A stretch of DNA of 64,000 nt. It comes from a virus (taxonomy: Duplodnaviria > Caudoviricetes). Where the stretch lies: positions 11,773 to 75,772 of IMG/VR virus record IMGVR_UViG_3300029288_000148; one strand, 5' to 3'. The first letter of the stretch is position 1, and every line of letters begins with the position of its first letter. The position numbers and the translations under genes were made by a program. The notes under the pieces are model-generated. The model was not told the DNA's origin, made no database searches, and worked only from the letters and a program-made list of their open reading frames with translations. Shown in pieces: positions 43,448 through 62,066 of this stretch.

Positions 43448-43618
43448 TTAAGTTTTAAAAAAACGTGTTGTAAATTTATGAATTTTATCTGAAAGAGGAT
43501 AGCCCCCCACTTTCGTGAGGGACCTCTCCTTGCCATGAAAACAAGAAAGCAGATTACCGTCGGCATCGGTATTGACACCAAAGGTACGCTTTTCTGTATT
43601 ATAATATTTCTTCATCAT
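43448..43618 (-). CDS. Hypothetical protein, 56 aa
   Basis: Likely start MMKKYY at 43618, overlapping the end of the initiator gene. Confidence 0.4.
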   Translation of the reverse strand: MMKKYYNTEKRTFGVNTDADGNLLSCFHGKERSLTKVGGYPLSDKIHKFTTRFFKT

Positions 43619-44609
43619 CCTGATTGTACTTTTTATTTTTAGCTTTTGCTTTTTCTTGGGCAGCCCATACTTCAAAACTTGGTAATTCCAAATTTTTTAT
43701 CTCTGCTCTCCTTTCTTGATCAGCCATATCCCATTCATATAACTCCTTTGCCCTTTTCTCACCTTCTTCCCAGTCTGCTTTTGCTTCTTCCCATGTCCGA
43801 TGCCTTCTTCGGAATGGCTCATCAGGGTATTTTTCTATTTGTTCCTGATTATATAGGTTTGCTAATTCTATCCATCTCTGCATTTCGGGATCAATAGGTT
43901 CAATAGGTTTAATATTCTTATTATCCCTTTCTTCAGGATTTGGATTTGGATTTGGATTTATAGTTTCTGGTGGTATTAATTGAATTTCTGGTTCAGTTAT
44001 TTTTTTCTCTTTTTCTTTTTCTTTTTCTTCTTTATTTACTTTACTTTGTGTAATTTCTGTTCCAGAAATGCCACTTTCTGTGTCTATAATATCATTTTCT
44101 GTGTCAGTAATACTATTTTCTGTATCTATAATATTATTTTTAATATGTTTAATTTCTGGGACAGAAATACTATTTCCGGCGTCAATAATTCCATTCTTGG
44201 TATATTTATTCCGAATCCTTAAATTTAATGAATCACATATTTCAATAAAATTTAATGGCATCCTATTCCTTTTTAGGTAAGCATATTTTATCCCTTTAAT
44301 AAAATTAAGAGACCAAATAATTTTATTTTCCCATAATTCAGGATGAATAGAATCTAACTCCGCAAGTGTATTATAAATTTCCTGCAATTCACTTTCTGGA
44401 AGTTTCATATAAGCGGAAAGATATTGCCAATCCTCTTTCTTTCGGCAGTCAATAAAATGGTTGTCGCTTTTACCTAACAACTCGAGGGTTTTAAACCATA
44501 CAGCATATCCTTTAAATGGATGCTTTGTTTCCAGTACAAATAAAGATTTGCCATGTTCGCATTGGTGTGGAAAATAATCCACTACATTTTTTTTAGGACG
44601 ACCAGCCAT
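43599..44609 (-). CDS. Phage replication initiator / replisome organiser (DUF4373, Lin1244/Lin1753-like N-domain), 336 aa
   Basis: GRPKKNVVDYFPH...KGYAVWFKTLELL N-terminus, central repeats and KEEKEKEK linker typical of lambdoid initiators. Confidence 0.8.
   Translation of the reverse strand: MAGRPKKNVVDYFPHQCEHGKSLFVLETKHPFKGYAVWFKTLELLGKSDNHFIDCRKKEDWQYLSAYMKLPESELQEIYNTLAELDSIHPELWENKIIWSLNFIKGIKYAYLKRNRMPLNFIEICDSLNLRIRNKYTKNGIIDAGNSISVPEIKHIKNNIIDTENSITDTENDIIDTESGISGTEITQSKVNKEEKEKEKEKKITEPEIQLIPPETINPNPNPNPEERDNKNIKPIEPIDPEMQRWIELANLYNQEQIEKYPDEPFRRRHRTWEEAKADWEEGEKRAKELYEWDMADQERRAEIKNLELPSFEVWAAQEKAKAKNKKYNQDDEEIL
44053..44190. repeat. Iteron-like repeats (putative replication origin inside the initiator gene)
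   Basis: TTTCTG-N3-C(A/T)(G/A)(A/T)AAT units at 44054, 44075, 44096 and 44117 (21-bp period) and at 44153. The first and last are perfect ATTTCTG-N3-CAGAAAT palindromes; a pyrimidine tract lies at ~43996-44045. Confidence 0.65.
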
Positions 44610-50352: not shown

Positions 50353-50694
50353 TTATCTGTATTTAACCAAATTCCTATTCCTCAATCCTCCCTCCTGCCT
50401 CCCAGGGTAAAACGTGCTACTCCTCAATATCAAATTATCACCCTCTACCAATACATTCCTCCCTAAACGAGTAAACACATACACCAACCTATAAACAGGT
50501 ATATTACTCAACTCACTCAACACCGCCTTCGTCCTACAAGCTACAATCAAGCAATCCTTCAACTCCCTTACATCATACCCCCCATTCAAAGATATTAAGA
50601 TATATATGTCCTTTTCTCTACTCCTCATAATTACCAATTGTATATCTATAACACAACCGTACAAAGATAAATTAAATTGTATATCTACATACAT
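50353..50694 (-). CDS. Hypothetical protein, 113 aa
   Basis: ORF with strongly skewed composition. Confidence 0.4.
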   Translation of the reverse strand: MYVDIQFNLSLYGCVIDIQLVIMRSREKDIYILISLNGGYDVRELKDCLIVACRTKAVLSELSNIPVYRLVYVFTRLGRNVLVEGDNLILRSSTFYPGRQEGGLRNRNLVKYR

Positions 50695-50913
50695 AAACGG
50701 ATACTTTTATTTTAAAATAAAATTAATTTTACCCAAAGTGAGTACCTGAGTGCGGTCCATGTATATATTTGGGGCTCGCATCCGCGAACCGAAATCGAAA
50801 ACCCGAACCCGCCCCCCTGCCTGTGAGCATCTCCGATGTTTCGCACACCTTAAAATAAAGCGCTCATCCCTGCCGGATCGCCAAAAAAGCAGTTTTCATG
50901 ATCTGGGCCAGTA

Positions 50914-50926
50914 GGGGAGGGGAGGG
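50914..50926 (+). other. Two overlapping KOPS-like octamers (GGGNAGGG)
   Basis: GGGGAGGG at 50914-50921 and 50919-50926, pointing at the dif-like site 26 bp downstream. Confidence 0.4.
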
Positions 50927-50952
50927 GTGCGCAATACCCTTTTATTTTGCCT

Positions 50953-50980
50953 ATTTGACATAATATTAATTATAAGCAAA
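50953..50980 (-). other. dif-like XerC/XerD recombination site
   Basis: Minus strand TTTGCTTATAA-TTAATA-TTATGTCAAAT versus E. coli dif GGTGCGCATAA-TGTATA-TTATGTTAAAT: 21/28 identical, XerD arm 10/11; intergenic. Confidence 0.7.
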
Positions 50981-51177: not shown

Positions 51178-51771
51178 ATGGAAAATAGTGAAATAACTGG
51201 CTCGGGACTGTCCCCGTTCTCTCCTGTCTCTCCTTCCTCTCCTGTGTTATCTTCTGACTTGCTTACCTTATTCGGTGCGCTGGATAATGGTAAGCGTCGG
51301 ATCTTCCGCAAGCTATATACTTATCTCTGGCGCTATCTCAGGCCATTGGACAATTATTCAATATTGCAGGATTACTGGGCGTTTCATTATGTTATTACTG
51401 ATGTTTATAAACTGCCCTTCGGCTTGGTTGCGCTCCTGTCTTGGCTGTACCAGGTATCGGGCAAAGGTGTGAATATAATTGATTCAAGGCGGTTTTATAA
51501 TACTCGTCCGGTTGCAATGAGCGTGCGCAATCATTATGAATATATGTCCGTATTGCGCAAGTCTGGATATATTACCCGTTATACTCGTGATCCTTCTGCC
51601 CCTTATCTCCTGCGCTCTGTCAGTCGTCAGCCTATATTTATCAAGGTGACTGCGGAGGGGTGCAAGTTGATTGAGAACATTGAGCGGGATACATATAACT
51701 TAATTATGCGCTCAGTTATGCGTGAAGTGACAACAGGCGCACCGAAACGCAAGAGACGAAAAAAGGCCTGA
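51178..51771 (+). CDS. Hypothetical protein, possibly winged-helix DNA-binding, 197 aa
   Basis: LRKSGYITRYTRD...IKVTAEG wHTH-like end and basic C-terminus; has its own promoter. Confidence 0.55.
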   Translation: MENSEITGSGLSPFSPVSPSSPVLSSDLLTLFGALDNGKRRIFRKLYTYLWRYLRPLDNYSILQDYWAFHYVITDVYKLPFGLVALLSWLYQVSGKGVNIIDSRRFYNTRPVAMSVRNHYEYMSVLRKSGYITRYTRDPSAPYLLRSVSRQPIFIKVTAEGCKLIENIERDTYNLIMRSVMREVTTGAPKRKRRKKA

Positions 51772-53009: not shown

Positions 53010-53672
53010 ATGAGTAAATTAAACTTTATGGAATTGAATGAACCAGATATAAAGCTGGTTCATCGTGGCTCAATGGCTCTTTCAGACCTTGAGACTTTAT
53101 CCCTTATCCTCTCCGGTGTCGATCCGGCTGAGAAAGCTAACAGGCTCCTGAATGCCTGTGAGTACGATTTTAGCGAGTTATCCCGCTATTCTTATACTGA
53201 CCTTATTAATTATGGTCTGTCACACCTTCAGGCCGTCAGATTGATTGCAATGATTGAATTTAGCAAGCGCAAAGCAATACAGCAGACAAGGGAGCGCAAA
53301 GTAATTAGACGTAGTCGTGATGCCTATGAAATTTTGTCGCCTCTCCTCTCTGATCTGGATCACGAGGAATTTTTTGTTTTGTTCCTGAATAGATCAAACA
53401 AAGTTATTAAATATGAGCGTATATCTCAGGGAGGAATGGCCGGAACAGTTACCGATGTTAAAATTATCCTCCGCAAAGCTTTGGAGAATAAGGCGAGCAG
53501 CCTGATATTGTGCCACAATCACCCCTCGCACAATAACAACCCATCTGATGCTGATATTTCAATCACTCGCAAGATAAAAGAAGCTTCCGCACTTATGGAC
53601 ATCCAGACCCTTGACCATATTATTATATGCGGCAAAGATTTCTATTCCTTTGCTGATAACGGACAAATTTAG
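53010..53672 (+). CDS. radC: RadC (JAB/MPN domain) protein, 220 aa
   Basis: LSDLETLSLIL N-domain; HEEF...LNRSNKVI...HNHPS...PSDAD...LDHIII. Confidence 0.92.
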   Translation: MSKLNFMELNEPDIKLVHRGSMALSDLETLSLILSGVDPAEKANRLLNACEYDFSELSRYSYTDLINYGLSHLQAVRLIAMIEFSKRKAIQQTRERKVIRRSRDAYEILSPLLSDLDHEEFFVLFLNRSNKVIKYERISQGGMAGTVTDVKIILRKALENKASSLILCHNHPSHNNNPSDADISITRKIKEASALMDIQTLDHIIICGKDFYSFADNGQI

Positions 53673-56002: not shown

Positions 56003-56048
56003 GGAAGGCCGGGTTTATGTGTGTGTTTTCCCGGTCTTCCTTTTTTTT
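56003..56048 (+). terminator. Intrinsic terminator with 16-nt GU-repeat loop
   Basis: GGAAGGCCGGG / CCCGGTCTTCC stem, loop TTTATGTGTGTGTTTT, T8 tail. Confidence 0.75.
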
Positions 56049-56068
56049 ATTAACTAAAAACAGAAATT

Positions 56069-56482
56069 ATGAAAAAATTGATTTTCTTATTTTTGCTGAT
56101 GAGCATGAAGCTTTCCGCTCCTCCGGGTATCTCGATTCCGGTCATCCTGAAGACGGAACCGCTGAATAATCTGGAAGCAATATGGCAGGCTGTTATCATG
56201 GTGGAGAGCAGAGGGAACCCAGATGCGTTCTGCATAGATATTAACGGACAGCCAAGCGTAGGTATTGCTCAGATCCAGCCGTCACGAATAGCGCACTATA
56301 ACAGGCTGGCAGGAACATCATATATGCTGAAGGATTGTTTTGATCCCGAAGTAAGCAAAGAAGTGTTTATGTACTTTGCCAGAAAGATAGGAAATGAGGA
56401 ACGGCTGGTTAAGGCATGGAACGGTTCAGGACCTTTAACAGAAATCTATTTAGCCAAAGTAAAACAATTCTACAATTTTTGA
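56069..56482 (+). CDS. Lytic transglycosylase (SLT/lysozyme-like) with signal peptide, 137 aa
   Basis: AVIMVESRGNPDA (catalytic Glu), GIAQIQP, AWNGSG; N-terminal MKKLIFLFLLMSMKLSA. Confidence 0.75.
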   Translation: MKKLIFLFLLMSMKLSAPPGISIPVILKTEPLNNLEAIWQAVIMVESRGNPDAFCIDINGQPSVGIAQIQPSRIAHYNRLAGTSYMLKDCFDPEVSKEVFMYFARKIGNEERLVKAWNGSGPLTEIYLAKVKQFYNF

Positions 56483-57692: not shown

Positions 57693-59246
57693 TTAATTTG
57701 CATTAAGCAAGTCGCAAATCTCTTTTACCGTTGCATATTTCAAAAATTCCTCTTTGTTCTTGTACTTCTCCAAAGACGGAACACTTGGCCTTAACTCCAA
57801 CCATCTCTCATTGTCTATTCTCGGATGAACTGATAAAAGATCGTTATACAGCCTTTTTGTGGTCGAAAACTCCCTTTCGTTACCCTTATCCCACTCCGGG
57901 ATCTGCAGGCCGTATTTGTTCAGCTCTTTCATCAGAGGTTTTTCCAATTTTACCTCCTGTTCTTCAGGCGTTTTGTCAAAGTTTATGTTTGGCTGGATGT
58001 CGGCATTGGTCTGTACCTGTTCTTCCTTTATCTCCCCTGTAACAGCATCTATTTCCGTAATTTCTTTGCCCTTAAACGGTGCTGTCAATATATCAAGCTT
58101 TCCTCTCTGCCAGGCATCAATGATCTCGCGAAGCTTCTTATTGGTGTTCTTCCCCGGAATGGCAACCATAGCCTCTATCATCTCGCTCTTGGTGTTAATC
58201 GTCTCTACAAGCAGTTCTGTGTCCATCTTGCTCATAGCATCGATAGTCCATTCACCAGCATCCTTTCGTTCCTCCTGTGCCTCCGGAGATAGCTCCTTGC
58301 CATCAATCTTGGTTATCTTGCCATCGAACATCTCCACAGATCCTCTTTCTGGCCTAAAAGGAGATTCTGTCTTGGCAAGATCATCATTTGCGGATGCTGC
58401 AAGTCCCTCGGATGTTATTGTTGTTGGCTTTTGCTCCGGCTCCGGTTCCGGATCAGACTTAACTGGTGCAAAGTTCTTCGCCTCAATCTTATCAATGGCT
58501 CTGGCTGTGACTTTCTTGCTGCGCTCCTCTGCAAAATCTTTATCAGGAATAGACAAGGTTACTCCGTTGCCCTGATCAATAACCAAAGTCTGATCTGCCG
58601 GAATATCAACCGCTTCTTCTGTTGTATAAAGTCCGTTAATTACATCAGGAAATAAATCTCTGGCTAAAAATCCAAGCGCCCTGTAATTCACCATCCTGGC
58701 AGGATACTTCCACCAAGCTGATGATTTGTACTTCCATCCATCTGATCCACTCACCTGTTGTTGTGTTATCCAAAGCCCAGCTCTCTTTGCCTGCCCAACG
58801 GAAAATGATCGGGTTATTGTTTGTCCGTTGTCTGCCCTCGATGCCGTGATGCGGACCACAAGATTCTCGTTCTCTATACTGCCTTCCTCAGTCTCGATCC
58901 ATGATGCTGTTTTTAATTTGCCGGACATAAAGATCATGCTCTTTGCCAAGTCTCCCTTTATTGACAACAATCCATTCACCGGAATAATGTGCTGTAATGC
59001 CGTCAGGGGAGGTAACTGCAACTGATAACCCTGAATCAATATCGCCACAACTGATTCAACCTTGCCCTTTGTAAAGTCAGGTTTCCCGTCCGGTAGTTTT
59101 TCGTAAAGGTGATAGGGAACCAGCTTACTATTCAGCAAAAGCCTTGCAAACTCCTGCATCTTCTCAATACTCTCATAGGCGTTCTCAACAAATTTGGGAA
59201 GCCTTGTCTCTGTGGATTTCACTAATCCTGCTTTCTCGTCGCTCAT
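57693..59246 (-). CDS. RecT-like single-strand annealing recombinase with long C-terminal extension, 517 aa
   Basis: AILIQGYQLQLPPLTALQHI...NG...YPARMVNYRALGFLARDLFPDVINGLYTTEE. Confidence 0.75.
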   Translation of the reverse strand: MSDEKAGLVKSTETRLPKFVENAYESIEKMQEFARLLLNSKLVPYHLYEKLPDGKPDFTKGKVESVVAILIQGYQLQLPPLTALQHIIPVNGLLSIKGDLAKSMIFMSGKLKTASWIETEEGSIENENLVVRITASRADNGQTITRSFSVGQAKRAGLWITQQQVSGSDGWKYKSSAWWKYPARMVNYRALGFLARDLFPDVINGLYTTEEAVDIPADQTLVIDQGNGVTLSIPDKDFAEERSKKVTARAIDKIEAKNFAPVKSDPEPEPEQKPTTITSEGLAASANDDLAKTESPFRPERGSVEMFDGKITKIDGKELSPEAQEERKDAGEWTIDAMSKMDTELLVETINTKSEMIEAMVAIPGKNTNKKLREIIDAWQRGKLDILTAPFKGKEITEIDAVTGEIKEEQVQTNADIQPNINFDKTPEEQEVKLEKPLMKELNKYGLQIPEWDKGNEREFSTTKRLYNDLLSVHPRIDNERWLELRPSVPSLEKYKNKEEFLKYATVKEICDLLNAN

Positions 59247-61221: not shown

Positions 61222-61644
61222 TTATAATAGTTCATCGCTAATAAATATTTCAGTTCGTGGCTTCTCTGAATAAAGCTTTCTGCAGGTCAGAAATGCTATC
61301 TGGCTGTCGTCCTTCCAAAAGATACCATTTAATGAATCTTGTACCAGTTTTTCAAGGTTGTCAATATCGGATTTTGACGTATGCCATTCTGGGGCGTTTC
61401 CCTTCAATTTAAGCGCATTTTGCCCTGAACCATAGTGAGCCTTCGGTCTGGGCATGTAGAAAGTAACATCAAGGCTTATGGCTCCTGTGAGGGGTTCTTT
61501 CGGTGCTTGGTCCTGAACAACCCATGCAAGCGTTTCCTTTTCCTGGCTTGATGGATCATAAGTGCCGGTAAAATTTCCCCGTTTAAAGCTTCTGTGTCTT
61601 GCCTGTGCTTTTGGCACTCCCAATATTACCAAATGAATCTTCAT
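61222..61644 (-). CDS. rusA: RusA-like Holliday junction resolvase
   Basis: GVPKAQARHR, FYMPRPK, KSDIDNLEKLVQDSLNG..WKDDSQI; start moved to MKIHL at 61644. Confidence 0.88.
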   Translation of the reverse strand: MKIHLVILGVPKAQARHRSFKRGNFTGTYDPSSQEKETLAWVVQDQAPKEPLTGAISLDVTFYMPRPKAHYGSGQNALKLKGNAPEWHTSKSDIDNLEKLVQDSLNGIFWKDDSQIAFLTCRKLYSEKPRTEIFISDELL

Positions 61645-62066
61645 ACCGGTATCCCAAATTGCCAACCAAGTAAAAATGTCACTCCAATACAGAGCGCAAT
61701 AAGCTTGAACATAAACAGAAAATGTTCTGATGCAATTCCTGTCTTTCGGAAAAACCATCCGAATAGCTTGTCAATAGGATCTGTGGTGCCAATAAAGAAT
61801 ATCGGCTCTTTCTTCATCAGGTTATATACCAAGTCCGATAATGCCCATTTTAAGGACAGCGCACCAGTAGCCACATACCAGAAGTTTGGGTCCACATCCC
61901 CATTCCTGAAGTGGTAATGGTTTGTCAAAAATAGAAGCATTACGATATAAAATACGGCATCATACCAGAATCTTATATACTTGCTCAAAGTCTTATATCC
62001 CCGGTCATAAAGAGCATCGGGGACCATTTTGAATACAATCATTAAGAAAACAATTAATAAATACAT
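61641..62066 (-). CDS. Membrane protein, 141 aa
   Basis: Several hydrophobic helices. Confidence 0.6.
   Translation of the reverse strand: MYLLIVFLMIVFKMVPDALYDRGYKTLSKYIRFWYDAVFYIVMLLFLTNHYHFRNGDVDPNFWYVATGALSLKWALSDLVYNLMKKEPIFFIGTTDPIDKLFGWFFRKTGIASEHFLFMFKLIALCIGVTFLLGWQFGIPV

Follow-up and report, generated by a model that had tools for sequence, protein, structure and literature searches.

The window analysed here, a stretch of 64,000 nucleotides, is the last 64 kb of a complete virus record of 75,772 bp whose assembly is circular, and its dif-like site occupies a gap of about 480-550 bp between two divergent genes (Table 1). An 11-6-11 site of 28 bp that matches E. coli dif at 21 positions, with two overlapping octamers about 26 nt from the XerD arm and aimed at it, had been claimed in the original prediction, and all of this was recovered on re-examination. 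Identity to E. coli dif amounted to 7 positions in the XerC arm, 4 in the centre and 10 of 11 in the XerD arm. This site alone gave the best dif match in the window (runner-up, 19/28), and a score of 21 was reached in 1 of 30 Markov shuffles, with about 0.03 such matches expected per shuffle. The absence of a phage integrase, noted earlier for the window, was extended by profile searches to the complete genome, in which neither PF00589 nor PF00239 recombinases were found. No tyrosine integrase (PF00589) was detected in any of the four genomes of the clade tested, this phage (G000) and G001-G003, and a recombinase of the phage's own was thus rejected.

Table 1. Features of the dif-like locus and related loci (positions are those of the window unless a locus is named).
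Feature	Position	Strand	Remarks
KOPS-like G-run GGGGAGGGGAGGGG	50914..50927	+	two overlapping GGGGAGGG, also two AGGGGAGG; 5'->3' at XerD arm
dif-like site	50953-50980	+	reads ATTTGACATAA TATTAA TTATAAGCAAA
dif-like site in dif orientation	50953-50980	-	TTTGCTTATAA TTAATA TTATGTCAAAT
XerD-binding arm (predicted)	50953..50963	-	TTATGTCAAAT; conserved AG next at 50951-50952
Central hexamer TTAATA, strand-exchange region	50964..50969	-	shared with at least 120 bacterial dif sites and relative G002
XerC-binding arm (predicted)	50970..50980	-	TTTGCTTATAA; 1 base from TTTGCCTATAA of ten Bacteroidales/'Rikenellaceae' genomes
XerC-side gene, MarR-like winged-helix DNA-binding protein	51178..51771	+	197 aa
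XerD-side gene, small protein without family	50353..50694	-	G002 orthologue 40% identical
Bacteroidota-type -7 promoter box TAtcTTTG, leftward operon	50662..50669	-	TAnnTTTG in relatives
Conserved non-coding blocks between G-run and leftward promoter	50732..50892	-	about 160 bp; alignment of 11 relatives
Two CGCTTT boxes	50857-50862, 50885-50892	-
Conserved block GGGGGGCGGGTTCGGGTTTTCGATTTCGG	50789-50817	-
Conserved block ATACATGGACCGCA	50751-50764	-
Conserved block CTCACTTTGGG	50732-50742	-	block set also listed with CTCACTTTGG
Replication-initiator-like gene	43599-44609
RecT-like recombinase gene	57696-59246
RusA resolvase gene	61225-61758
RadC-like JAB gene	53010-53669
Second-lineage cassette	L279:18690-18800 (G828, 34,021-bp record); also L200-L278		divergent gap just upstream of small ORF and terL

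The portal and terminase proteins matched phage families in a protein family search, and the closest cultured relatives by TerL, at 26-27% identity, are Cellulophaga, Maribacter and Flavobacterium phages. When searched by blastn, neither cultured phages nor PLSDB plasmids gave a relevant match to the region. Direct terminal repeats of exactly 127 bp are present both in this phage and in its relative G002; they have the size of an assembler k-mer overlap and therefore indicate circular assembly, not mapped virion ends. The site lies 13 kb from terL, and no tRNA was found in its intergenic gap. RecT-like, RusA and RadC-like genes flank the early region and make the phage recombination-proficient. 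A non-exhaustive scan of roughly 50 proteins revealed neither ParA/ParB nor other genes for plasmid maintenance; many of the small ORFs belong to no family.

The protein encoded next to the XerC arm had no match in Pfam or PHROGs. The top Foldseek hits of its AF2 model (pLDDT 75.5) all belonged to the MarR family and, if the modelled fold is right, the protein may be an early or switch regulator of the phage. An equivalent ORF of 181-209 aa adjoins the XerC arm in 12 of 13 relatives examined. On the XerD side, translation probably begins near 50627 and not at the called start, 50694, because a conserved promoter box falls inside the ORF as called; the ATG near 50627 would yield a product of about 91 aa, and most relatives have one of 93-109 aa. 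A flank of about 250 bp is conserved on this side, starting with the KOPS-type motif. For its conserved blocks, roles as an origin, as regulator sites or as accessory sequences for Xer are conceivable. No Rfam match was obtained in the gap or in the blocks, and a structured non-coding RNA was rejected, as no covariation-supported fold was found on either strand.

Relation to Bacteroidota dif and conservation among phages

The original prediction had suggested comparing the site with dif of Bacteroidota and searching for it in related phages. The first comparison gave a likeness much stronger than that to E. coli dif, making Bacteroidota dif the relevant comparator. The phage site is identical at 27 of 28 positions to TTTGCCTATAATTAATATTATGTCAAAT, found in ten genomes that are mostly MAGs labelled Rikenellaceae or Bacteroidales, and the AG following the XerD arm is also common to the phage and these ten genomes. 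The exact 28-mer was absent from the species genomes; in a scan with one genome per species, the 21-nt core was identical in the dif sites of at least 120 species, and some 115 of these are Bacteroidota. This core occurred as one copy per contig among the matches listed, and as one copy per whole genome in all five genomes checked. For Bacteroidetes outside Bacteroidia, the predicted dif is nnGTnnTATAA TTTATA TTATGT[T/A/C]AAAT (Kono 2011, PMC3025954, suppl. 2), and in that set the XerD arm of the phage equals the predicted Capnocytophaga dif arm and its centre equals the Pedobacter centre. The inner ATAA of the XerC arm is invariant while its outer bases vary, as they do in bacterial dif. In its 11-6-11 layout and its partly palindromic arms the site agrees with the consensus of the host phylum.

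A TerL-alignment search yielded 38 relatives. All 14 related phage records checked (TerL 68-86% identical) carry such a site, and the pattern ATAA-N6-TTATGTNAAAT, allowing at most one mismatch, was matched in 13 of 15 relative records, among them all six that are at least 90% complete. One of the 13 pattern matches, that of G020, does not look like a real site. The circular relative G002 (72,210 bp; TerL 73% identical; typical protein identity about 50%) has TCAGCCTATAA TTAATA TTATGTCAAAT in the same gap, where the flanking orthologues share only 40% and 29% identity. Nowhere is the DNA of the two genomes more conserved than in a 36-nt HSP over the site, and each genome has one copy of the core.

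In a comparison of 20 distinct phage-borne sites, there was essentially no variation in the inner XerC arm or in the XerD arm, and the central hexamer took several forms (TTAATA, TAATTA, TTATTA, CTATTA, TTATCA or TTATAA). This combination of fixed arms and a variable centre is how a recombinase site is conserved and does not fit an accidental dif-like operator. The centres TAATTA, TTATTA, CTATTA and TTATCA were absent among 94 bacterial hits in a phylum sample of 401 genomes, which suggests that the phage centre need not match a host. Such apparent freedom to drift is expected if the site recombines with itself. In eight of nine metagenome contigs with a TAATTA-type site, a CCCTACCC motif lies no more than 60 nt from the XerD arm.

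Some relatives (G002, L129:4752-4779; G012/G016, G013 and G009) have an additional perfect XerD-arm-like half site, TTATGTAAAAT or TTATGTCAAAT, located 75-145 nt away on the XerC side and mostly inverted. G000 is without one.

The G-rich motif, the host machinery and a second phage lineage

In the whole 75.8-kb genome GGGNAGGG occurs only 12 times, 3 of them on the + strand, and in the rest of the phage genome the KOPS-like motifs show no clear bias in orientation towards the site (8/12 and 7/9); replicon-wide KOPS polarity was rejected as not significant. In 18 of the 20 distinct phage-borne sites, a GGGNAGGG-type motif directed at the XerD arm is found at a distance of 24-56 nt from it, a placement that is not chance, judged from the background rate. 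Relatives usually show TCCCCTACCCTAT beyond the XerD arm, which is ATAGGGTAGGGGA on the other strand, within a spacer that is otherwise unalignable. Among 119 bacterial dif loci, nine, including one with the 27/28 site, have CCT[C/T/A]CCCT at most 100 nt from the XerD arm (at 36-55 nt in eight of the nine); over the same distance on the XerC side the motif was found in no locus.

On a complete Bacteroidales chromosome of 2.2 Mb (G004), GGGNAGGG switches strand at dif. There GGG[CGT]AGGG was counted 52 times toward dif and 10 times away, against 26 and 17 for the composition-matched reverse GGGA[CGT]GGG (Fisher p=0.012, one chromosome only), and all G-rich octamers were skewed. When homologous contexts around the 119 dif loci were collapsed, AGGGGAGG was the most abundant polar A2G6 octamer (33 toward, 1 away), with 13 and 1 for its reverse. 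A first de novo octamer count had been discarded and redone in collapsed form, since a conserved gene about 1.5-3.5 kb away on the XerD side of many bacterial dif sites had raised it artificially. The assignment of the G-rich motif as KOPS is thus well supported, not proven, because the skew extends to all G-rich octamers and the case rests on a moderate excess over controls. The conserved gene, present near many Bacteroidales dif sites (L003-L122), shows a repeated ...ACAGGGGAGG... context; it is unannotated, and in our own reading this context looks like the 'QRRGGKG' box of GyrA/ParC.

An FtsK gamma domain was present, one each, in all seven candidate host-type genomes, and its helix GYNRAGRIIDQ aligned to GYNRAARMIE of the KOPS-bound P. 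aeruginosa gamma domain (2VE9, E 4e-14). The same seven genomes all encode XerD (310-344 bits) and a second Xer paralogue. We take the N, R and acidic positions of the host helix to be those of the E. coli KOPS-blind positions N1296, R1300 and E1303. The host machinery is thus compatible with XerCD/FtsK use of the phage site; XerCD binding and cleavage and recognition by the gamma domain are inferred only. On the G004 chromosome the XerD gene is located 11 kb from dif.

Around the host type that carries the 27/28 site, no integrated copy with a close TerL was found in 702 genomes (401 order-level and 301 family-level), a sample that does not exclude rare or unstable integration. The prophage matches were discarded, being remote TerL homologues and one 125-nt fragment only, and none of the 17 related records with a reported IMG/VR end class is a provirus. 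The 125-nt piece, 82-86% identical to terL of the clade at the nucleotide level, lies alone in intergenic DNA (G937:C7 ~56,045-56,168; L292:45-168) of a bacterial genome whose family also includes G024, a genome with the 27/28 dif. This piece may point to the host lineage or to an earlier exchange of DNA between phage and host.

Canonical TTTATA-type dif cores were also found on 79 viral contigs. In 29 of these the core is accompanied, 9-60 nt from the XerD arm, by CCCCTACCC in 1-4 copies, which often overlap or stand in tandem. Complete members of this second lineage are HK97-type tailed phages of 34-35 kb, without PF00589 and unrelated to the clade of G000. Its small contigs were not accepted as microviruses, as CheckV placed them at 12-16% completeness and the complete members are HK97-type tailed phages; a Phage_F search was blank on the small contigs, but also on control genomes.

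Possible roles of the cassette

The near-identity to Bacteroidota dif, the conservation of the site, the motif on its XerD side and the host proteins together support the idea, put forward in the original prediction, that the phage exploits host XerCD and FtsK. No biochemical data are available. On this predicted basis, it is very probable that this phage of Bacteroidota, its relatives and the second lineage act on their own DNA through the XerC/XerD-FtsK machinery of their hosts. The prediction had left two options, integration at dif and resolution of dimers of a plasmid-like carrier state. They remain unresolved, and of the two we favour resolution.

The favoured reading is that of a working XerCD/FtsK cassette that resolves multimers or catenanes of a circular phage episome, and we give it about an even chance of being correct. 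The identity of the cassette, its conservation, its geometry and the compatible host proteins are observed, and from these we infer binding, FtsK dependence and an episomal phase. The phage DNA would be circular after infection, and host XerC and XerD would occupy the two arms. FtsK would load at the adjacent G-rich motif, travel 25-55 bp to the XerD side and activate XerD, whereupon two copies of the site would be recombined. The main gain would be the conversion of multimers and catenanes, products of phage RecT/RusA recombination, into monomer circles, which would serve an episomal carrier (pseudolysogenic) phase. Since the phage encodes RecT and RusA, multimers should arise, and in a reaction of the site with itself only the arms must fit the host recombinases, leaving the central hexamer free to drift. 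Chromosomes and large secondary replicons resolve their dimers with this same design, a canonical dif and a permissive FtsK loader (PMC2533119), and DNA next to the XerD site is known to matter for FtsK activation (Bonne 2009, PMC2673442). The lack of an integrated copy in the 702 genomes also favours resolution over integration. Several points stand against resolution: the phage shows no partition genes among the proteins scanned, a concatemer-packaging phage has no obvious need of monomers, and the KOPS polarity across its genome is not significant. FtsK is normally active only at the closing septum, and this restriction, too, speaks against resolution, as do the unidentified host and the absence of experimental data.

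The main rival is reversible XerCD integration at the host dif in the manner of an IMEX, with FtsK-activated XerCD excision giving an unstable lysogeny that resembles a carrier state; it appears rather unlikely to us. Exchange between phage and host is chemically possible, as the arms and centre of G000 and G002 are identical to real host dif, and the absence of an integrase in G000-G003, the missing partition genes, a MarR-like regulator in a divergent control region that resembles a switch, and the terL fragment in a genome of the candidate host family are all in line with it. Other viruses of Bacteroidota are reported to integrate at dif (PMC9719478; PMC3091885). Yet no integrated relative was found in the 401 order-level and 301 family-level genomes, no proviruses occur among the classified records, and the central hexamers of most relatives are unseen in bacterial dif samples. 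A canonical dif with permissive KOPS is excised efficiently, and the known IMEXs, to our knowledge, avoid FtsK-dependent sites, which further argues against integration.

We consider it quite unlikely that the site is no recombination substrate, whether as a decoy for XerCD/FtsK that disturbs division, as a chance dif-like operator or promoter, or as captured host DNA. Its position between divergent promoters, next to the gene of a DNA-binding regulator, would suit such readings, but chance resemblance is excluded by the exact 21-mer in at least 120 dif sites, chimeric assembly and recent host DNA capture are excluded by its recurrence in diverged relatives from different metagenomes, and a single site per genome would be a poor titrator. 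Very unlikely, in our judgement, is a role in genome cyclisation or end processing, by which the site would help to close or process terminally redundant DNA after injection as loxP does in P1, or act near the start of packaging. The cassette of the second (34-kb) lineage does lie just upstream of a small ORF and terL, but the site of G000 is 13 kb from terL; moreover, its 127-bp 'terminal repeat' is an assembler k-mer overlap, so that the true ends are not known, and there are no read data.

Compared with the dif sites of chromosomes and chromids (E. coli; V. cholerae dif1/dif2, PMC2533119), the phage site has the same 28-bp 11-6-11 form, arms of host consensus and one copy per replicon, and in both cases GGGNAGGG-type polar motifs are aimed at the site with a geometry on the XerD side suited to FtsK activation. 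Unlike chromosomal dif, it is located in a divergent promoter gap of a tailed phage and not at a replication terminus, it has one local guide motif without polarity across the replicon, and its centre varies among relatives. The IMEXs (CTXphi, VGJphi, TLCphi; microvirus and PhiCjT23-like proviruses of Bacteroidota) likewise combine a dif-like site with the lack of an integrase of their own. However, these are small ssDNA or double-jelly-roll viruses or islands with defective or atypical sites and routes that do not depend on FtsK, and are found integrated, whereas the present phage has 76 kb of tailed-phage dsDNA, a canonical site with an FtsK guide and no integrated copy in the genomes searched. 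P1 Cre/loxP, ColE1 cer, pSC101 psi and Acinetobacter pdif resemble it as single sites that keep an extrachromosomal replicon monomeric; cer, psi and pdif share the use of host XerCD, unlike P1, which has its own recombinase. The cer and psi sites rely on accessory sequence of about 180 bp, located on their XerC side, and work without FtsK, in contrast to the conserved flank of the phage, which lies on the XerD side and opens with a KOPS-type motif.

Small ssDNA and double-jelly-roll phages that exploit Xer, and plasmid sites resolved by host Xer, are already known. In the literature searched, we found no paper describing dif in a tailed or crAss-like phage, nor a canonical host dif with an FtsK guide conserved through whole clades of large integrase-less tailed phages, and in this respect the observation appears new. 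As a broader and tentative proposal, which we regard as doubtful, integrase-less tailed phages of Bacteroidota, crAss-like ones included, would carry a portable 'dif + FtsK-loader' lifestyle module coupling the genome to the division machinery. The module would either hold a low-copy episome in monomeric, heritable form or let the phage dock reversibly at the terminus of the chromosome, and GGG(T/G/A)AGGG would be the KOPS of the phylum. If true, such a module would explain in molecular terms the stable carrier state of these phages, which has long been debated. With a working cassette, the persistence of crAss-like and other Bacteroidota phages without classical lysogeny would become open to testing, and a sequence-based marker for host prediction would be gained, because the dif arms of the phages mirror host dif. 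Phage cassettes that keep only the essential parts would also offer a first functional clue to the KOPS consensus of Bacteroidota.

Two further records from isolate genomes, G832 and G833 (L234, L247), are predicted IMG/VR proviruses of 43-46 kb. Each has a perfect dif at a distance of about 580 nt from one end, and 0.5-1.3 kb from the opposite end there is a perfect XerD-arm half site in inverted orientation. These records may represent tailed prophages seated at dif.
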